From Candidatus Pacearchaeota archaeon (GTDB taxonomy: Archaea; Nanobdellota; Nanobdellia; Pacearchaeales; GW2011-AR1): a stretch of 64,000 bases of DNA. The DNA lies in NCBI GenBank assembly GCA_038740375.1, contig JAVYLW010000004.1, forward strand, positions 28,067 through 92,066. Reading direction: 5' to 3'. The translations under genes and the position numbers were made by a program. The notes under the pieces were generated by a model. The model did no database searches. It was not told the DNA's origin and saw only the letters and a list, made by a program, of their open reading frames with translations. Shown here piece after piece: positions 13,676-24,189 of the stretch (the stretch's first letter is position 1; every line of letters begins with the position of its first letter).

Positions 13676-14674
13676 ATGAAAAGAAAAATTATTAAGCAGG
13701 GGCATAATACTCTAACAATAACTTTGCCAACAGAGTGGACAAGGAAACTTAATCTTTCCGCAGGAGACGAAGTTGATTTAGTGGAAGATGGCGGTTGTTT
13801 ATGTATAAACGGAAAACAACGTAACGGATTTAAATCTACTACTATTGATATTACAGGATTTACAGTTCCTTTAATATGGAGATATTTTCAATCTGCATAT
13901 AGAGAAGGTTGTGATGAAATTATATTGAAATATGATAAAAATCAAAAAGATTATGAAAATGTTTACAATTTTTATGCTTCTCATTTTGAATATGCTCGAT
14001 TTGGAGAAAAACCTTTGAAAAAACCTGCTTTAGAAACTATAACAGACCTTGTTAATAGATTTATTAATGTGGAAATAATTGAACATGGAGAAGGTTATTG
14101 TATTATTAGAGAAATGGGTGAAATTTCAAGTAAAGAGTTTGATAATTCCTTAAGAAGAATCTTTTTATTGTTATTAGATTTATTTGATAAAATTATAAGT
14201 TTAATAAAGGAAAATAAAATAGGAGATATAAGAATATGCAAGACAATACATGCTATGGATATTAATATTGATAGGTTTATTGATTATTGTTGTAGGATAA
14301 ATAATAAAATTAAAGACTCTAGTTTTCAAAAAAATAAACCAATAATGTTTTCTACACTATTTTTATTAGAATTGTTAGGAGATGAGTTTAAGTATATAGG
14401 TGCTCATCTTGCAAGATCTCATAAAAAAATTGATGAAGTATTGCCTTTTGCTGAGAAAGTTAAAGAGCATTTTGAAATGTATTATCATTTATTTTATAAG
14501 TTTAATAGAGAATCTGAAATACAAATAGGATTAAATGACTTAAAAATTTATAACGAACATTTTAAATGGAAAGATTCTAAGAATAAAGATGCTAATAGTA
14601 TTAGGCAACATCTTATGCAGATTTCTAAATTTACATGGTGCCTTAATGAACTTAGAATTGAAATGGAGTTTTAA
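13676..14674 (+). CDS. AbrB/SpoVT-type DNA-binding domain fused to PhoU-like domain (archaeal phosphate-uptake-regulator-like)
   Basis: 332 aa. The N-terminal swapped-hairpin motif is RKIIKQGHNTLTITLPTEWTRKLNLSAGDEVDLVEDGG. It is followed by a helical repeat region of PhoU-like size. This architecture is common in archaea (COG0704-like). Confidence 0.65.
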   Translation: MKRKIIKQGHNTLTITLPTEWTRKLNLSAGDEVDLVEDGGCLCINGKQRNGFKSTTIDITGFTVPLIWRYFQSAYREGCDEIILKYDKNQKDYENVYNFYASHFEYARFGEKPLKKPALETITDLVNRFINVEIIEHGEGYCIIREMGEISSKEFDNSLRRIFLLLLDLFDKIISLIKENKIGDIRICKTIHAMDINIDRFIDYCCRINNKIKDSSFQKNKPIMFSTLFLLELLGDEFKYIGAHLARSHKKIDEVLPFAEKVKEHFEMYYHLFYKFNRESEIQIGLNDLKIYNEHFKWKDSKNKDANSIRQHLMQISKFTWCLNELRIEMEF

Positions 14675-14844: not shown

Positions 14845-14866
14845 AATTTTTGTTAAATCTTTGTAT

Positions 14867-14939
14867 AGCCCTGTAGTATAGCGGTCAAGTATACAGGACT
14901 CTGGCTCCTGTGACCCAGGTTCGAATCCTGGCAGGGCTA
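14867..14939 (+). tRNA. tRNA-Gln (anticodon CUG)
   Basis: 73 nt, folded by hand. The acceptor pairs AGCCCTG/CAGGGCT, the anticodon arm is CAGGA-CTCTGGC-TCCTG and the T arm is CCAGG-TTCGAAT-CCTGG. It is a GC-rich island in AT-rich DNA. No CCA is encoded. Confidence 0.9.
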
Positions 14940-15061
14940 TGAAAATAAGTTCATAAAAAGTGAATTAGAAAATAAATCTATATCTATTTGTTATAATAAC
15001 TTTTTCTTTATAATATTCAAATTCTAATAAGGTTTAAATATTTAATATTATTAATTTACAT

Positions 15062-15310
15062 ATGGAAGGTAAATTAATTGGAGAAGTTTTTAACTTTTTT
15101 GAGCATGTTGGAGTAATTGCAGTTGAACTCAAAGAAAATCTTAAAGTTGGAGACACTATAAGAGTTGTTGGAGGTGAAAGAGACTTTAAAGAAGTTGTTA
15201 AAAGTATGCAGATTGAAGGAAAAAATGTCACAGAAGCTAAAAAAGGAGATAGAGTTGGAATTAAAGTAAGTGAAAAAGCTCATAAAGGATATAAAGTTTA
15301 TAAAGTTTAA
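15062..15310 (+). CDS. Small EF-Tu domain-2-like beta-barrel protein
   Basis: 82 aa. GEVFNFFEHVGVIAVELKENLKVGDTIRVVG..IEGKNVTEAKKGDRVGIKV resembles the translation-factor domain II barrel. The two antisense track ORFs over it look spurious. Confidence 0.5.
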   Translation: MEGKLIGEVFNFFEHVGVIAVELKENLKVGDTIRVVGGERDFKEVVKSMQIEGKNVTEAKKGDRVGIKVSEKAHKGYKVYKV

Positions 15311-15553
15311 TTAAATATTTGATAAGAAAAATATCTATTTTGGAATTTAAATATTAGAGAATTTAGATGAGCGTTTTTTTTAAAAAATATATTTTTATTT
15401 GTGATAGATTCATTATTTTTTATTTTACTCTTAATTTTTATTTTTTACATTTTCTTTTTTATAATAACTTATATTAACATATAAAAGTATTTAAAAAACA
15501 AATTTTATGAGATATTAGTTTATTATTTAAGTAAATAAAGTTAAAATTATTCT

Positions 15554-15626
15554 GCCCCTATAGTGTAGAGGCCAAGCATACAGCCTTCTCAAGGCTGTGA
15601 CCCGGGTTCGAATCCCGGTGGGGGCA
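15554..15626 (+). tRNA. tRNA-Glu (anticodon CUC)
   Basis: 73 nt. The acceptor pairs GCCCCTA/TGGGGGC, the anticodon arm is CAGCC-TTCTCAA-GGCTG and the T arm is CCGGG-TTCGAAT-CCCGG. Confidence 0.9.
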
Positions 15627-16106
15627 TTAATCTTTATAATTAAATCCTCGAAAGAAAATTAATGACTAAGAAATTGTTTAGTTTTATGTTAAAAAAGAAG
15701 TTAAAATTTTAAGATTTTTTAAAATTACAAATAATATATTAATAATTATTATAATTATTTATGTTTAATATTAGGATAACTTAAAATTTAATTCATTTAA
15801 TATTCTAGACAACAATAAGAATGAAATCCTCCTCCACCTAATAAGGGTGTAGGTTTCCGTGATGCTTTTTTTAGAGTTCTTACATCAAACTCAGTAATAT
15901 TAATTAAATAAATAAAAATAAATTATTTTAACTATCTATGTTTGATATTAAGATAGCTTAAGATTCTTACTTTATTAAAATTAAGATATATCAAATTAAA
16001 GAATTAAAGAAGAAAAATTAAATTTTTTTATGATTTAGAACACCCGTTAATGTTACAATACACATTTTTAGAAAAGTTTAAATACTAATATCTGTTTTTT
16101 TAATTA

Positions 16107-19100
16107 ATGAATAAAAAGGGGTTAAATAAAATAATTAGTATTATTATTCTTTCTTTTGTTTTTTCAATTTTAGGTATATTAATCATTTATAGTATAATTG
16201 CAATATTCACAAAAAAAGGAAAAGAAGAAACAAAATTAGAACCTATATTAATTGATTTAGATATTCAAAGTGCTTATATAAATAAAAATAATGATACTGC
16301 TATTATTTCTGTTACAAGAACAGGAGAAGGACAAATAAATAAACTAAAATTTATTTTTAATGATAAAAACGGTGTTTCTTATATATATGAATATCCTTAT
16401 GCTGAAGGTTTTCCTAAAGAAGATGAAAAAAAGATTTATGAAATAAAATCCTATTTTATTCCGGGACTTAAAGATTTTTCAAAAATAATTACTGTTTCTA
16501 TAGCTTTTACAGTTTTAACTGAAAGTGGAAATGAATTAACTAGTATAATAAAGGATACTTTTGGAAAACCTCCTGAAGATATAAGAGACCCTAAGAATAA
16601 TTTATCTAGAAATACTCCTATAGTAGTTGGAAGTGGAAGTAGTGGTACTAGTGGAGGAGATGCATCATTTATAGAATGCGTTCCTAATTGTTTAGGAAAA
16701 GAATGTGGAAATGATGGATGTGGAGGAATATGTCCTCCTGGATGTTCTTCTAATGAAATCTGTAATAATGGAAAGTGTAGTTTATTCTTGTCAAATAATT
16801 TAAAAGATATGAATAAATATGATTCTAAAGAATTATTTTTAGTTTCTGATAATGATTGGAAAAAAGTTTTGCCATATATTCCTTTATCAGTCTGGAGTGG
16901 AAATGAAAATTGTCAAAGAGGAACTAACACTCCTAAAAATGTTTGTGTTTATCCTATGTTAATTTATCATGGTGAAAATGATTTTAATATACCTAATACT
17001 CCTTCTTATGAAATTTCAGATTCTGTTTATTCTTTGTTTGGAAAATCATTAGTAAGAATATACCTAGATAATAATTCAATTAAAGATTTTTTAAAAAATG
17101 ATTTAGATATAGTTTCTATTAAAGATAGTTATATAGATGTTGTTATTTCAGATTCTCAAAGGAGATATTATGAAAATAAAGGTTATCATCTTGAAATATT
17201 GCCTGTAACATTACCAAAATTTAATAATTTTGGAAATGATGCTAATTTTTCAGCATATCATACTTATGAGAGTATGGTTAATGAATTAAATTCTATTCAA
17301 CAAAATTATTCTTCTATTGCTAAAGTTTATGTTATTGGAAAATCAATTCAAGGAAGAAATATTTATGGAGTAAAAATATCTGATAATGTTGGAATTAAAG
17401 AAAATGAAACTAGAATACTTATTACGGGTAATCATCATGCAAGAGAAATAATCAGCGTTGAAGTTCCTATGTATATGATAAATTATTTAACTAAAAATTA
17501 TTATTTAAATGAAAAAATTAAAAAAATTGTTGATAATTATGAGTTTTGGTTTGTTCCAATGGTTAATCCTGATGGACATATTATGGTAGAAAAAGGAAAT
17601 CTATGGTGGAGAAAAAATTTAAGGGATAATAATAACAATAATGTAGTTGATGATTATGATGGCGTTGATTTAAACAGAAATTATGGTTATACTTGGGGTT
17701 ATGATGATATAGGTTCTAGTCCAAATTTTTATTCAGAGACTTATAGAGGCACAAAAGCTTTTTCAGAGCCTGAGACTTATGCTATATATAATTTATCTAT
17801 TCAAAACAATTTTTCTTATGTGTTTGATTATCATTCTTATGGAGGATTTATAATTTATCCTTGGGGTCATATAAATTCTTTAACTCCTGATGATAGTCTA
17901 TTTTATAATTTATCAAATAATTTTAAGGTTTATTTAAAAGGATATAATTCTGGCACGATATGTCAAATTTTTGGATATTCAAATGGAGATAGTATTGACT
18001 GGCATTATGGAGATCAAACAAATAAAAGCAAATCAATTGCATTTGGGATAGAGTTAGATTCATCTAATTTTATTCCTCCTTCAAGTGAAATTCTTCCAAT
18101 CTGTAAGAAAAATTTAGCAATGTTACTAAATTTTACAGGATATAATGTTCCAATAGTTAAAGATGCTAATGTAGATATTGATTCTGTTATTTATTTTATG
18201 CAACAATATTCTCCAAACAGACTAACGATTTTAGGCGATACTTCACAAGAAATTGATAATTTGCTTATTGCAAGTCCTCCTGTTGGAGCTGGATTAAATA
18301 TAAGTAAAATAAGAAGAATAAGTGAAGATAACTATTTGAATTACTGGTTAAATTATAGTGATATAATTTATGTTGAAGATAATTATGAAATTGCTTTAGT
18401 AGCCTCAAGTTATGCTTCTTTGATTAATTCTCCATTAATCATTAAAGGAAGTAATTTAGATAAAAATCAAACATTTAATGGAAAGAATGTCATATGTATT
18501 GGAAATATAAGTGGCGAATCTTCAAAGTATTGTTCTATAAAATATGATTTAAAAACTTTGCAAGATGTATACTTAAATTTAACTAAGACAAAAAAAATAA
18601 TTTTAGTTAATCCTGATGATTGGGATATATCTTTATCTGGAAACTTAAAAACTATGAGAACTGCTGGAATTGTTAGAAACCTTTACACCAAAAATTCATT
18701 GATTGCTCCTATTCTTGCAGCTTCAAAACATGAACTGATACTAACAAATGCTTCAAATAATTTACTTGTTTATGACAAATTAATAGAAGATTTTTTTAAT
18801 AGTAATTATAATGAAACAATAACTGAATGTAAATATATAGACTCATGTTCAAGTGGTTTTGATAATAAAAGTTTAAATATGAAAGGTGTTAAAGAAAAAA
18901 TAACCTTTTTTATAAAAACTCTTCCAGATATATTTCCTTATTATATTATTCCTTATGAAGGAAAAGTTAATAAAAAAACTGAATTGAAAATAGGTGTTAA
19001 GAATATTGGTTTTAATGTTTCTAAAAATTGTAGTGTGAGATTATATTTAGTGAATGATTCTAAAGAATTAATACTTATAGGAATGCAAAATTTAGGAGAT

Positions 19101-21206
19101 ATAAACGAAAATGAAGTTAAAGAAGCTGTAATAAACTTAACTTTTGAAAAAGCTGGTTACAAAAAATTATATATAAATGTTTCAACAGATTCTAAAGAAT
19201 TAGATGAAGAAAATAATTTTGAATTTTTTTCTTTTGAAGTTAAAGAACCTTCTCCAGATGTAGAGATCACAGGGCCTGCTTATTTATACATGAAAATAAA
19301 TTCTGCAAATTATTTTAATATAAGTATTTTTAATAATGGTGAAATTCAAACAGGAAAATTTAATTTAAGCTTAATGTATTATAATAATAGTATTATTTAT
19401 GAAAAAGAAATATTAAATCTTAATCCTGGTGAAAATAAATCAGTTCAATTTGAATTTAATCCTAAGGAAATAAAAACATATTATCTTATAGTTTATGCAC
19501 AAGTAACTAATGATTATTATCTGAAGGATAACTATCATTCTATAAAAATATTTGTAACGAGTAGTTTTGAAGATAATTCTATAAATAACAATGATACGTT
19601 CTTTTATAAAAATATCTCTGTTAACGAAAAAACAAAGAATAATTACAAGGTATATGAAAATAAAAGCATTTTTGATTATATTGAACAACCTTATTATTAT
19701 ATTTATCTGAATGGTTTTTTTTATAATTGTAGTAAAGATTTTGTTATTGTAAACATATATTTTAATAATGAACCTCTAGGATATAAAAAGGTATCTTGTT
19801 ATAATGATCTTCCTAGAAATAATTATTCTGAATATTTAGGAGGTTATCCTCATTATTTTTTAAGAAATATAACTTTTGAATTTAATGGTAGTTTAATATT
19901 TCATAATGAAAGCAATATGATGTATTTTTATAAAGATTCTGAATTGTTATTGTCATTTTCAAAAGAAGAAAGCTCTGGAGTTTTAAACATTCCTATTTTA
20001 ATTTCAGGATGGACTTTAAATGAATCTAGTTTTTATGTTCAAAATAAGAATTATAGCACAATCATTGTTAATATAAAAGAATTAGACATATATAATAAAA
20101 CAGATTTTGATGTTTATTTGAACGGGCAATTTATAGGTTTATTAGATTTAAGAAATTCTAATGGAGACAAATCAAAGGAATTTTTAATACCTGAAAATTT
20201 AAAGAAAAGTTCATACCTTAATATAAGTTTAAAACCAAATGGTTCAAATTTTTATATAGCTAATGTTAAGTTAAAAACTGATTTTGACGACTACTATCTT
20301 ACAATTATAGGAAGTCCTGAATCTATTCCTAATGAACAATATTATGAAGACTATTATAGTTATTATGAATCTGATTTTAGAGAACTTGGAGATATTGATA
20401 AAGATAATGAAGGAGAGTTTTCTGTCGGAAGAATCTTTGGATTATCAAGTTCAGATGTTTCTTCATATTTAGCGAGAGTTTTGTTTTATGATAAAATTAC
20501 TAAAAAAAGTGGAGGAACTTTTATGATGGTTGGAGATGGATATACTCAAAGAATTCCATTAATGGAATGTAACAAAAGTTTTTGTAGCTGTTATTTCGAT
20601 GTAGAATGTCCTCAAATATTTAATAGATACAAAAACTATTTTTATCCTTTTGAAAATTGTAATCAAGATTTAATAGATGGCAAAGCACAAGATTATGGAA
20701 CAAGCGATTGTGAAAATGTTAACAGATTAAAGAATAACATATTATTTAATTCAAGCATGACTGCTTACGCAGGTCATGCTGGATTAGAAGGGTGGGATAT
20801 TGATTATAGAATGATGAAAACAAATGAATTAATAGAGATTCCTCCTATGTTTAATTATGCATTCGGATGTGCATCATGCTCTTTTAGAGAAGCTTCTTAT
20901 TACTCTTCTTATTACCCTGGTAGTCTTGAAAACTTGTTTTGTGCTAATATTATTAGAAAAGGTTCTATAGGATATCAAGGTGCTGTTGAAAATATGTATG
21001 GAAATCATTTCTTAAACGAAATATTTGATGAGATTCTCATAAATAACAAATCAATAGGATATGCATTTAAAGTAGCAAAAAATAAAGAAAGAAGATATGA
21101 TTGGGAAACACCTCTTTTGCCTAATTATGCTCAATATAGAGACCTTTTTGGAATTCATGATACATTAATTGGGGATCCGACATTTATCGGAAAATTTGGA
21201 AAATGA
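16107..21206 (+). CDS. Giant membrane-anchored surface protein: Cys-rich module + M14 zinc carboxypeptidase domain + CARDB-like repeats + C-terminal C25/gingipain-like cysteine peptidase domain
   Basis: 1699 aa with an N-terminal TM helix (IISIIILSFVFSILGILIIYSIIAIF). The Cys-rich module is ECVPNCLGKECGNDGCGGICPPGCSSNEICNNGKCS (about nt 16670-16790). The M14 domain (about nt 17250-18150) has YHTYESMVNEL, ITGNHHAREIIS (HxxE), MVNPDGH and FGIELD. CARDB-like segments include LKIGVKNIGFNVSKNCSVRLYL. The C-terminal region (about nt 20290-21206) has the His/Cys dyad context AYAGHAGLEGW and NYAFGCASCSF. Confidence 0.7.
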   Translation: MNKKGLNKIISIIILSFVFSILGILIIYSIIAIFTKKGKEETKLEPILIDLDIQSAYINKNNDTAIISVTRTGEGQINKLKFIFNDKNGVSYIYEYPYAEGFPKEDEKKIYEIKSYFIPGLKDFSKIITVSIAFTVLTESGNELTSIIKDTFGKPPEDIRDPKNNLSRNTPIVVGSGSSGTSGGDASFIECVPNCLGKECGNDGCGGICPPGCSSNEICNNGKCSLFLSNNLKDMNKYDSKELFLVSDNDWKKVLPYIPLSVWSGNENCQRGTNTPKNVCVYPMLIYHGENDFNIPNTPSYEISDSVYSLFGKSLVRIYLDNNSIKDFLKNDLDIVSIKDSYIDVVISDSQRRYYENKGYHLEILPVTLPKFNNFGNDANFSAYHTYESMVNELNSIQQNYSSIAKVYVIGKSIQGRNIYGVKISDNVGIKENETRILITGNHHAREIISVEVPMYMINYLTKNYYLNEKIKKIVDNYEFWFVPMVNPDGHIMVEKGNLWWRKNLRDNNNNNVVDDYDGVDLNRNYGYTWGYDDIGSSPNFYSETYRGTKAFSEPETYAIYNLSIQNNFSYVFDYHSYGGFIIYPWGHINSLTPDDSLFYNLSNNFKVYLKGYNSGTICQIFGYSNGDSIDWHYGDQTNKSKSIAFGIELDSSNFIPPSSEILPICKKNLAMLLNFTGYNVPIVKDANVDIDSVIYFMQQYSPNRLTILGDTSQEIDNLLIASPPVGAGLNISKIRRISEDNYLNYWLNYSDIIYVEDNYEIALVASSYASLINSPLIIKGSNLDKNQTFNGKNVICIGNISGESSKYCSIKYDLKTLQDVYLNLTKTKKIILVNPDDWDISLSGNLKTMRTAGIVRNLYTKNSLIAPILAASKHELILTNASNNLLVYDKLIEDFFNSNYNETITECKYIDSCSSGFDNKSLNMKGVKEKITFFIKTLPDIFPYYIIPYEGKVNKKTELKIGVKNIGFNVSKNCSVRLYLVNDSKELILIGMQNLGDINENEVKEAVINLTFEKAGYKKLYINVSTDSKELDEENNFEFFSFEVKEPSPDVEITGPAYLYMKINSANYFNISIFNNGEIQTGKFNLSLMYYNNSIIYEKEILNLNPGENKSVQFEFNPKEIKTYYLIVYAQVTNDYYLKDNYHSIKIFVTSSFEDNSINNNDTFFYKNISVNEKTKNNYKVYENKSIFDYIEQPYYYIYLNGFFYNCSKDFVIVNIYFNNEPLGYKKVSCYNDLPRNNYSEYLGGYPHYFLRNITFEFNGSLIFHNESNMMYFYKDSELLLSFSKEESSGVLNIPILISGWTLNESSFYVQNKNYSTIIVNIKELDIYNKTDFDVYLNGQFIGLLDLRNSNGDKSKEFLIPENLKKSSYLNISLKPNGSNFYIANVKLKTDFDDYYLTIIGSPESIPNEQYYEDYYSYYESDFRELGDIDKDNEGEFSVGRIFGLSSSDVSSYLARVLFYDKITKKSGGTFMMVGDGYTQRIPLMECNKSFCSCYFDVECPQIFNRYKNYFYPFENCNQDLIDGKAQDYGTSDCENVNRLKNNILFNSSMTAYAGHAGLEGWDIDYRMMKTNELIEIPPMFNYAFGCASCSFREASYYSSYYPGSLENLFCANIIRKGSIGYQGAVENMYGNHFLNEIFDEILINNKSIGYAFKVAKNKERRYDWETPLLPNYAQYRDLFGIHDTLIGDPTFIGKFGK

Positions 21207-22240: not shown

Positions 22241-22492
22241 ATGGTTAAAAAAGGTCGTATTGAAAAAAAGTTTGTAAAACCTTTTTCTGTTATAATTAAG
22301 TTTGCAGTGTGGATAACAACTATTCTTGTTTCATTAGCTGTAGGATTTTCTATGACAGAAGGTGGAGCATTAAATCAAAGTATTCCTTTTATTTCAAAAA
22401 TAGGAAATGGATTAATTGTTGCAATTGCTGGTTGGATTGTTATTGTTTTAACAATTATAAGTATAATACTTTCAATATTTGAAAGATTATAA
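22241..22492 (+). CDS. Small two-TM membrane protein (hypothetical)
   Basis: 83 aa with two hydrophobic helices (FAVWITTILVSLAVGF and LIVAIAGWIVIVLTIISIILSIF). Confidence 0.45.
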   Translation: MVKKGRIEKKFVKPFSVIIKFAVWITTILVSLAVGFSMTEGGALNQSIPFISKIGNGLIVAIAGWIVIVLTIISIILSIFERL

Positions 22493-22721: not shown

Positions 22722-23135
22722 ATGATTAGTTGGTTTGTTATTATCCTTGCTATCATCGGAATTTTTTTTCTATACAAACTTGTTACTTATAAACATAGAA
22801 AACCTAGAATATTTATGGTTATATTCCTTATATTGATAATTTTATTTGTATCTACACTATATTTAGTTACTAAAGCCAATAATGTGGACATGACTACACT
22901 CTCAGGATTTGGAAATGGTATGAAAATATATGGTATTTGGATTCTTAATCAGTTTTCAGGTATAAAATCAATTACTGGAAATGCTGTTAATTTAGATTGG
23001 GCTAAAGTTAATCTTAAAGATACAAAACCTATTTCAAATAATATAACCTCTAATAATAATCAGGCAAATATTGAAGCAAAAACTAATATTTCAAATTCTA
23101 CTAAAAATTTGATGAAGCCAAAACCTCTAAAATAA
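22722..23135 (+). CDS. Membrane protein (hypothetical)
   Basis: 137 aa with two N-terminal TM helices and an Asn/Ser-rich C-terminal tail. Confidence 0.45.
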   Translation: MISWFVIILAIIGIFFLYKLVTYKHRKPRIFMVIFLILIILFVSTLYLVTKANNVDMTTLSGFGNGMKIYGIWILNQFSGIKSITGNAVNLDWAKVNLKDTKPISNNITSNNNQANIEAKTNISNSTKNLMKPKPLK

Positions 23136-23268: not shown

Positions 23269-23342
23269 GCCGCAGTAGCTCAGCTGGTTAGAGCGCTACC
23301 TTGGTAAGGTAGAGGTCCTGAGTTCAAGACTCAGCTGTGGCT
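23269..23342 (+). tRNA. tRNA-Thr (anticodon GGU)
   Basis: 74 nt. The acceptor pairs GCCGCAG/CTGTGGC (one G-U), the D arm contains AGCTCAGCTGGTTAGAGC, the anticodon arm is CTACC-TTGGTAA-GGTAG and the T arm is CTGAG-TTCAAGA-CTCAG. Confidence 0.9.
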
Positions 23343-23424: not shown

Positions 23425-24189
23425 TTAAAAACAATGAGAATCATAGTAAGGATCACAAATCTTGTATAAATACCTGTAATCAGATTTCTCTTTTATATAT
23501 CCTTCTGCTATTTTTAATTCTGTTGAGTTTTCGATTTTATATTCAATTTTTATATCACTATTTATCTTAACTGTAAAATCACAATCAAAGAAAAAGCTTT
23601 TTTTTTCACCAATATCTAAACTTTTGTTAGGTTTTATCTTATCACATTCATCAACTTTAATCATTGTTATTGTAACTTTTTCTTCTCCTATATTTTTTAT
23701 ATCTAAAGTGAGATCTTTCCTTGACACGTCAATTTCTTTTATTTCAAATGGATCATCTATATTTGTCCTATATCTGTTGTTATTAGAATATCTAAATTCA
23801 TAATCATCACATATTTTATTGTAATTTTCATCTAAACAGCACCTAGTTCCTTCTTGAATATAGGGTCTTTGACAAAAAACATTCTCTTCTTTTTTAAACT
23901 CTCTTAAAATTTGCTCTTCTAAATTGTCACATACTCTATTAATATTTTTGTCTAAACAACATATATCTCCTATTTTCACAAAAGGAAAATAACAAACTAT
24001 ATCTTGCTTTTTCTGTATTTCTATTAAAGTTTCTGTTTTAAATGGTTTTTGTTTTTGAGTTGGTTTTATATTTACTGATATAATGTTCGTTTTAAGAATA
24101 ATATAAGTAATTATTGCAGATAATAATATCAAAACAATAACTATTAAAAATATCACTACACCTATAATCTGCGCTTTTTTTCTTTTCAT
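23425..24189 (-). CDS. Membrane-anchored Cys-rich secreted protein (hypothetical)
   Basis: 254 aa with an N-terminal TM helix. A Cys motif is duplicated: VCYFPFVKIGDICCLDKNINRVCDNLEE and FCQRPYIQEGTRCCLDENYNKICDDYE. A CARDB-like beta segment follows (LTLDIKNIGEEKVTITMIKVDEC). Confidence 0.55.
   Translation of the reverse strand: MKRKKAQIIGVVIFLIVIVLILLSAIITYIILKTNIISVNIKPTQKQKPFKTETLIEIQKKQDIVCYFPFVKIGDICCLDKNINRVCDNLEEQILREFKKEENVFCQRPYIQEGTRCCLDENYNKICDDYEFRYSNNNRYRTNIDDPFEIKEIDVSRKDLTLDIKNIGEEKVTITMIKVDECDKIKPNKSLDIGEKKSFFFDCDFTVKINSDIKIEYKIENSTELKIAEGYIKEKSDYRYLYKICDPYYDSHCF

Follow-up and report, generated by a model that had tools for sequence, protein, structure and literature searches.

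The closest described systems to the gene studied here are found on the surface of Porphyromonas gingivalis. The gingipains Kgp and RgpB (MEROPS C25; structures 4rbm, 6i9a and 4ief) are large multi-domain cysteine endopeptidases of the cell surface with accessory beta-sandwich or adhesin domains, and they cooperate there with a metallocarboxypeptidase, CPG70, which belongs to M14. CPG70 removes C-terminal Lys and Arg, trimming the fragments processed by gingipains (PMC4674972, PMC10319874). We describe here a 1699-amino acid (aa) protein of Candidatus Pacearchaeota archaeon (genome 0.97 Mb in 15 contigs, 85% complete) that pairs the same two peptidase classes. It is the product (P0001) of an open reading frame (ORF) at positions 16107-21206 (+, stop codon included) of a 64,000-nucleotide (nt) window, by which we mean the whole stretch of DNA that was analysed. 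We consider it probable that the product of this giant gene is a proteolytic machine of the cell surface, constructed around a gingipain-like (C25, clan CD) scaffold specific to DPANN, the proteolytic activity being predicted from sequence comparisons and structural models. DPANN archaea rely on other cells or on external nutrients, and their surface machinery is little known.

A second parallel comes from the Cwp proteins of Clostridioides difficile, in which a variable enzyme head is combined with three CWB2 repeats. For the carboxypeptidase part alone, the nearest characterised enzyme is carboxypeptidase T of Thermoactinomyces vulgaris (MEROPS M14A). Each of these systems is compared with P0001 below.

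The two peptidase domains

The C-terminal 308 aa of P0001 (residues 1392-1699), searched alone, match the Pfam family C25 (PF01364) with 51.2 bits against a cutoff of 23 (E = 1.4e-13). The match spans profile positions 68-371 of 374 and scored 50.2 bits in a six-frame search of the genome; it was missed when full-length P0001 was scanned. A profile built from 20 diverse relatives matched Kgp (4tkx/4rbm, E = 1.9e-7), with 'DHG..W' aligned to 'AHGSETAW' and the invariant Cys aligned to the second Cys of 'GNCCITA'. His1557 and Cys1588 are in register with Kgp His444 and Cys477, and separase, a weak third match of the profile, aligned in the same register. The His is invariant (31/31 sequences) and the Cys is retained in 29/31. 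The two exceptions, P0022 and P0023, have an apparent Ser, which in the case of P0023 is an alignment artefact. The segment also carries a GRI motif (1441-1443) and GDP (1689-1691), and the protein terminates 8 residues past GDPTF. Two other searches were uninformative: phmmer of the C-terminal 308 aa against PDB returned a chance match only, and the whole-alignment profile A1 recovered M14 relatives only.

Foldseek searches with a 1010-residue AlphaFold2 model were swamped by Ig-like, complement and transglutaminase beta-sandwiches, and the C-terminal segment was therefore modelled alone. The model of residues 1388-1699 had a mean predicted local distance difference test (pLDDT) score of 90.6 and a predicted template modelling score (pTM) of 0.89. 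Its top three PDB matches were Kgp 6i9a, RgpB 4ief_D and Kgp 4rbm (E = 2.3-4.4e-6, TMq 0.57-0.60), with clan-CD CHAT proteases next. Judged by profile and by model, the C-terminal region is a predicted gingipain-like C25 clan-CD domain with a His/Cys dyad. A first-pass annotation, made from the sequence alone, had proposed a clan-CD dyad in a C25 context and had staked this on a caspase/gingipain fold with aligned His and Cys, which is what the model and the alignments returned. All of the motifs that it singled out were located in the giant protein (HHARE at residue 443, NPDGH at 487, FGIELD at 646, YYLTIIGSPESIP at 1396, AYAGHAGLEGW at 1553 and NYAFGCASCSF at 1583).

P0001 resembles the gingipains in its fold and dyad, in its size and multi-domain make-up, in its accessory beta-sandwich domains and in its predicted location at the cell surface. 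However, identity is only 13-14%, no propeptide is detectable and a 490-aa insertion divides the catalytic domain. In contrast to the gingipains, P0001 lacks an Ig-like domain behind its catalytic domain in the same chain, and its C25 domain is preceded by a conserved alpha/beta module (A+B, see below) without known relative. Moreover, P0001 is archaeal and has an N-terminal anchor and no type IX secretion system (T9SS) C-terminal domain.

Family C25 also includes PorU, which acts as a sortase (PMC4560394). The C25 domain of P0001 might by this precedent be a sortase or transpeptidase that attaches the giant protein, or other proteins, covalently to a partner or to a surface polymer, a role that would suit the anchored partner always encoded beside the scaffold. 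We regard this as highly improbable: Foldseek placed Kgp and RgpB first and PorU was absent from the matches listed, P0001 bears its own N-terminal anchor, and no sorting-signal motif was identified. Membership of the PorU-type T9SS sortases was rejected, since Kgp and RgpB head the Foldseek matches listed and the named family members are archaeal; T9SS genes were not searched for.

Nearer the N-terminus, residues 391-671 match Peptidase_M14 (PF00246) with 230.8 bits against a cutoff of 21.6 (E = 3.5e-68), over profile positions 2-285 of 286. The match scored 236.5 bits in the genome search, in which a single M14 gene was counted. The closest PDB relatives are carboxypeptidase T (3qnv, 1obr; E = 5e-50) and then carboxypeptidases A4, A and B. 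The alignment with carboxypeptidase T covers residues 382-656 and keeps HHARE, WRKN, NRNY, the His of YHSYG and the Glu of GIEL. In a 17-sequence M14 alignment the zinc ligands H444, E447 and H576 (equivalent to H69, E72 and H196 of carboxypeptidase A) are invariant, as are the substrate-carboxylate binders R502, N523 and R524 and the catalytic E649 (Arg127, Asn144, Arg145 and Glu270). By these alignments the domain is predicted to be of the carboxypeptidase T/A/B type. The earlier description of a complete M14 zinc carboxypeptidase, which loss of the zinc ligands in a proper alignment was to overturn, has held. As to specificity, Asp628 presumably occupies the position of the Asp that binds basic side chains in carboxypeptidase T, and we take Ile630 to correspond to residue 255 of carboxypeptidase A, both placements being made by eye from motif spacing and not from a structural alignment.

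Compared with carboxypeptidase T, P0001 keeps the zinc, substrate-carboxylate and catalytic residues. However, its M14 domain sits in a loop of another protein, the equivalent of Tyr248 is off by one, and the segment in front of it (PRE, about 90 aa) has no detectable similarity to known pro-segments. PRE travels with M14 in 11/11 M14-bearing scaffold proteins, and in P0038 and P0039, the two bacterial homologues in which it was recovered, its position is close to the N-terminus. PRE is put forward as no more than a candidate pro-segment; its identification as a known prodomain was rejected, no similarity having been found in PDB or Pfam.

Nested insertions in a conserved scaffold

BLAST comparison with 36 homologues resolved three conserved pieces in P0001, namely A (residues ~228-292), B (681-896) and C (1390-1699). 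Segment A is retained by almost all of the homologues. Identity across the family is 31-67% for A where it is aligned, 44-52% in most members for B (37-53% overall) and 23-46% for C. Local hidden Markov model searches of 175 fetched proteins found the C piece in 165. A+B was also present in 144 of these, among them all those with a length of 700 aa or more. B and C adjoin in 104 of the 175 proteins, and A and B are contiguous in P0017, P0025, P0026, P0029, P0033 and P0036. Relative to P0009, P0001 contains an insertion of ~490 aa (residues 895-1383). Segment B consists of an alpha/beta module (681-828) followed by the N-terminal piece of C25 (829-~900, KKIILVNPDD...). When a profile of contiguous B-end and C sequences was compared by hhalign with the canonical C25 of P0023, the two aligned with 94% probability (E = 1.5e-7), and the alignment begins at the helix preceding the B/C joint. 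Therefore, the CARDB/Ig-like block interrupts the C25 catalytic domain.

In the inserted block, Ig-like/CARDB domains (~919-1151) are followed by a linker of low confidence (1152-1193) and then by more all-beta domains (~1196-1390). CARDB (PF07705) was matched in two stretches, the best at 1063-1136, with 49.9 bits against a cutoff of 22.7 (E = 4e-13), and Foldseek returned Ig-like multi-domain matches for the block. The AlphaFold2 model of residues 690-1699 (pLDDT 86.2, pTM 0.74) runs from a strand-helix module through a series of beta-sandwiches, with the linker disordered, to the alpha/beta C25 domain. The PRE+M14 cassette is likewise found at a joint of the scaffold, between A and B in 10 proteins and between B and C in P0012. 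Other members of the family carry papain, subtilisin, DPP-IV-like, beta-helix, propeller, LamG, F5/8-C or dockerin heads. The M14 cassette and the Ig-like block are thus nested insertions in a conserved C25-based scaffold. The first-pass annotation had pictured two peptidases fused end to end with CARDB repeats in between. Profile searches segment by segment did place M14, C25 and CARDB above their cutoffs, and the repeats are present; the end-to-end order is not what was found, because M14 and CARDB lie within a scaffold that carries other heads in relatives, and the CARDB block splits C25 instead of separating the two peptidases.

By analogy, the family may be likened to the C. difficile Cwp proteins, where variable heads also sit on a constant alpha/beta surface module. 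However, the CWB2 matches in segment B recur but are weak and sub-threshold (E = 0.055 to 0.1), the A+B module has no match in PDB, and the proteins come from archaea without a known cell-wall polymer. A CWB2 (PF04122) identity for segment B was rejected at 14.5 bits against a cutoff of 24.9 (E = 0.055), and 3/7 homologues matched CWB2, at E >= 0.097 only.

The constancy of the C25 scaffold beneath diverse and often non-catalytic heads (beta-helix, propeller, LamG, dockerin, F5/8-C) is what would be expected if C25 were a cis-acting maturation or processing protease of the scaffold, leaving M14 as the sole enzyme acting on external substrates. The payload would then be activated or set free through cleavage, by C25, of the same chain or of the partner; taking PRE off M14 would be one instance. 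Gingipains process themselves and other surface proteins, and a segment of the size of a pro-segment always precedes M14, near the N-terminus in the bacterial homologues. The papers cited above concern trimming of gingipain fragments by CPG70 and not autoprocessing (PMC4674972, PMC10319874). Against such a role, PRE resembles no known prodomain in PDB or Pfam, no cleavage site was identified, and members without an enzymatic head retain an intact dyad. The last point suggests that proteolysis of external targets is the function of the domain, and we consider processing in cis unlikely, though not negligible.

The N-terminus of P0001 is consistent with a surface protein. A Kyte-Doolittle scan found one hydrophobic segment, residues 5-37, and none elsewhere in the giant protein, in agreement with the single N-terminal transmembrane (TM) anchor of the first-pass annotation; the Cys-rich module that it had placed after the anchor is also present (residues 191-224, 8 Cys). 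The hydrophobic segment could be a signal-anchor or else a class III (pilin-type) signal. Resemblance to the latter is visual only (KKG/LNKIISIIIL in the giant protein, RG/ISNIIVVV in P0004), and the N-termini of P0001, P0004, P0006 and P0008 gave no Pilin_N or Class_IIIsignal match in Pfam at E <= 10. A prepilin peptidase gene occurs in the source genome. Residues ~45-150 are 28% identical to residues 1-141 of P0004, and this domain has no Pfam family match. Four M14-scaffold proteins, P0001 included, begin with a pilin-like hydrophobic N-terminus that Pfam misses. Upstream of P0037, a 140-aa gene (L008 3582-4004) with a faint Class_IIIsignal match shares a 4-nt overlap with the start of the scaffold gene.

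The partner gene and the distribution of the module

The stop codon of the giant gene (TGA, 21204-21206) and the start codon of the next gene (ATG, 21203) overlap as ATGA, as the first-pass annotation had pointed out in calling the two genes coupled. The downstream product has 299 aa, with a signal peptide (residues 4-27) and a C-terminal TM helix (243-276) by hydropathy scan. Its middle region aligns across all seven orthologues and has no Pfam or NCBIfam family match; in PDB the product gave weak Ig-domain matches only (CEACAM1, E = 0.004; positions ~171-252 of the A2 profile). Homologues, with identity up to 37% (E = 3e-66), lie directly downstream of six scaffold homologues, including subtilisin-head and headless ones, and the 4-nt overlap recurs in 3/6 homologous loci. 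In a phylum sample of 301 genomes (300 relatives and the source genome), the partner was found in 11, in 10 of them strongly, and the scaffold is strong in the same 10 genomes, a co-occurrence given as a count and not as a statistical test, since related genomes are not independent. For all 14 full-length partner matches there is a scaffold on the same contig and strand, the partner lying 2-3 kb downstream of it. Moreover, three proteins contain the scaffold and a partner-like domain in one chain: the domain follows C25 in a 1146-aa paralogue from the same genome, the only protein that has it in this place, and is found at the N-terminus in P0142 and partially in P0146. Judged from these homologues, the product is a conserved partner of the scaffold. 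It had previously been listed simply as another anchored protein; the anchor is there, and the conservation beside the scaffold goes beyond that description. Taken together, gene order, coupling, co-occurrence and fusions argue for a physical complex of the giant protein and its partner.

The paralogue (L015 2233-5673 (-), G000 contig C1) has a signal peptide, a small head, A+B and C25. Its C25 domain keeps the His and the Cys and has lost the second Cys of the CxxC motif, and its partner-like domain is followed by a further C-terminal domain. Its stop codon touches or overlaps the start of another gene (1581-2231), whose 216-aa product has an N-terminal anchor and is not homologous to the partner.

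Within the phylum sample the scaffold was found in 13/301 genomes (11/224 genera), no genome having more than three scaffold ORFs, and it was not found in the two same-genus genomes searched. The module is accessory. Named members of the family are annotated as Nanoarchaeota, Woesearchaeota and Diapherotrites archaea, under the public names 'hypothetical protein' or 'beta-helix repeat protein', and NCBIfam has no family for the giant protein or the partner.

About ten metagenomic proteins combine M14 with C25. P0023, a metagenomic protein encoded on a 43-kb contig, consists of a PQQ-type propeller, M14, a gingipain propeptide, a full C25 (E = 4e-59) and a dockerin. Its M14 domain is 43% identical to that of P0001, and both carry M14 and C25 on one secreted protein. 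However, P0023 has a linear order and a canonical C25 with propeptide, and gave no A+B profile match; it represents an independent origin of the combination. Comparison with relatives, which the first-pass annotation had proposed, thus modifies its view that the dual-peptidase architecture was unfamiliar: the combination is shared by the metagenomic proteins, and the scaffold occurs elsewhere with other heads, while the nesting is not described in the literature searched. That literature mentions secreted C25 peptidases of DPANN in general terms (PMC9563170) and covers gingipain-like peptidases from sediment archaea (PMC6461988) and a different carboxypeptidase in Pacearchaeota (PMC11537232). 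The protein families are known; for the nesting, the A+B module and the partner, the papers searched gave no description.

Predicted function and genomic surroundings

In the proteolytic machine that we favour, the giant protein would be tethered at the membrane by its own N-terminal helix and would be bound by the anchored partner. The C25 cysteine endopeptidase would cut extracellular or host-surface proteins internally and the M14 carboxypeptidase would trim the newly made C-termini, with the beta-sandwich block serving as a spacer or binding stalk. The products might feed the cell, or the activity might instead remodel the envelope of a host. In P. gingivalis a C25 endopeptidase and a metallocarboxypeptidase cooperate on the surface as separate T9SS-secreted proteins, and so divide the labour; in P0001 both would act from one polypeptide, with M14 nested in the protease scaffold.

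Several observations weigh against this proposal. No third catalytic residue could be assigned in the C25 domain (Asp388 in Kgp, Glu152 in RgpB); Asp1477 ('MVGDGY') adjoins the aligned position of Kgp 'IAGADY' and is conserved in the closest clade only. The gingipain propeptide (PF08126), which P0023 has, was not detected in P0001 by Pfam. In the M14 domain the Tyr248 equivalent is shifted by one residue (G623-Y624), close kin having Y or YY at this place. Many family members have non-enzymatic heads, and the protease may for this reason serve scaffold maturation rather than digestion. The binding of giant protein and partner is an inference from gene linkage and fusions. Lastly, neither PF00496 (Opp-type binding proteins) nor PF13520 (APC permeases) was found in the 85%-complete genome, and a purely nutritional role is for this reason not favoured over remodelling of a host surface.

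That these two families, both common in amino-acid and peptide uptake, were not found also speaks for another proposal, in which the protein would be a host-interaction tool of an episymbiont, attacking or remodelling the host envelope (S-layer, peptidoglycan or pseudomurein peptides) for attachment or access. The small size of the genome, the patchy occurrence of the module, which fits fast-evolving interaction genes, and the adhesin-type domains among the heads of relatives all accord with it. However, no host is known and no feature of the locus is tied to cell-wall hydrolases. The first-pass annotation had itself raised action on murein-type stem peptides; the PDB matches listed for the M14 domain place it with carboxypeptidases T, A and B and include no murein-peptide enzyme, so that this idea finds no support. 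We judge a dedicated host-envelope role to be distinctly unlikely.

A broader possibility, which we advance tentatively, is that the A+B+C25 scaffold works together with its partner as a surface display platform, specific to DPANN, whose payloads can be exchanged at two permissive loops. The cassettes swapped would be such as PRE+M14, papain, subtilisin, beta-helix adhesins, propellers and Ig-like stalks, one of the permissive loops would lie inside the protease domain, and the cysteine protease of the scaffold would mature or activate the payload. If so, the platform would be a rapidly diversifying toolkit with which tiny episymbiotic archaea meet their hosts or substrates. It would also account in part for the high proportion of giant genes annotated as "hypothetical" in DPANN genomes and would provide a natural example of nested-domain protein engineering. 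For the proteolytic machine as for the platform, the locus offers a testable two-gene module, composed of a gingipain-like scaffold that tolerates insertions even inside its catalytic domain and an obligate anchored partner.

The coordinates of the features described above are collected in Table 1.

Table 1. Features of the giant gene and its partner, with positions in the window and the basis of each assignment.
Feature	Residues	Position	Strand	Basis
Whole giant gene (P0001)		16107..21206	+	ORF call, 1699 aa
N-terminal hydrophobic segment	5-37	16119..16217	+	Kyte-Doolittle scan
N-terminal domain without assigned function, common to P0004	~45-150	16239..16556	+	28% identity
Cys-rich module, 8 Cys	191-224	16677..16778	+	Kept in P0002 and P0017
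Scaffold segment A	228-292	16788..16982	+	A+B profile positions 5-69
PRE segment	293-380	16983..17246	+	Accompanies M14 in 11/11 M14-bearing scaffold proteins
M14 zinc carboxypeptidase domain (predicted)	381-680	17247..18146	+	Pfam, PDB alignment
Scaffold segment B	681-896	18147..18794	+	A+B profile, E = 1.1e-81
Inserted Ig-like/CARDB block	897-1389	18795..20273	+	Pfam, AlphaFold2, Foldseek, homologue comparison
C25 (gingipain-like) catalytic segment (predicted)	1390-1699	20274..21203	+	Pfam, profile, AlphaFold2, Foldseek
Partner gene, 299 aa		21203..22102	+	ATGA overlap with giant gene; downstream homologues

The window has a G+C content of ~24%. The giant gene is its longest ORF, the runner-up encoding 938 aa, and the first-pass remark that it is the largest coding investment of the window is correct. 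A TTTAAATA box lies at window positions 16078-16087, ~20-28 nt 5' of the ATG at 16107, and there is no obvious ribosome-binding site; this pair of observations, both made by eye, suggests a leaderless or near-leaderless transcript.

Genes for tRNA-Gln(CTG) and tRNA-Glu(CTC) are located upstream of the gene pair (window 14866-15627) and a gene for tRNA-Thr(GGT) downstream of it (23269-23342). A genomic island was considered and rejected, no att-like direct repeats being found between the tRNA genes that flank the pair. An empty-site comparison with the same-genus genomes was ruled out because these genomes are too divergent, a neighbouring protein being only 36-38% identical.

Directly after the partner gene are two genes for small predicted membrane proteins of 83 and 137 aa (22241-22492 and 22722-23135, +), which are not conserved neighbours in the homologous loci inspected. 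Just past the tRNA-Thr gene, the product of 23425-24189 (-) has 254 aa and an N-terminal anchor; it contains a duplicated Cys motif (C..P......CCLD.N.N..CD), is beta-rich in its C-terminal part and matches no family. On the other side of the pair, 13676-14674 (+) encodes a 332-aa protein whose first 40 residues match the AbrB/MazE-type SpoVT domain (PF04014, E = 2.3e-8); family relatives have this protein too, at 36-40% identity.

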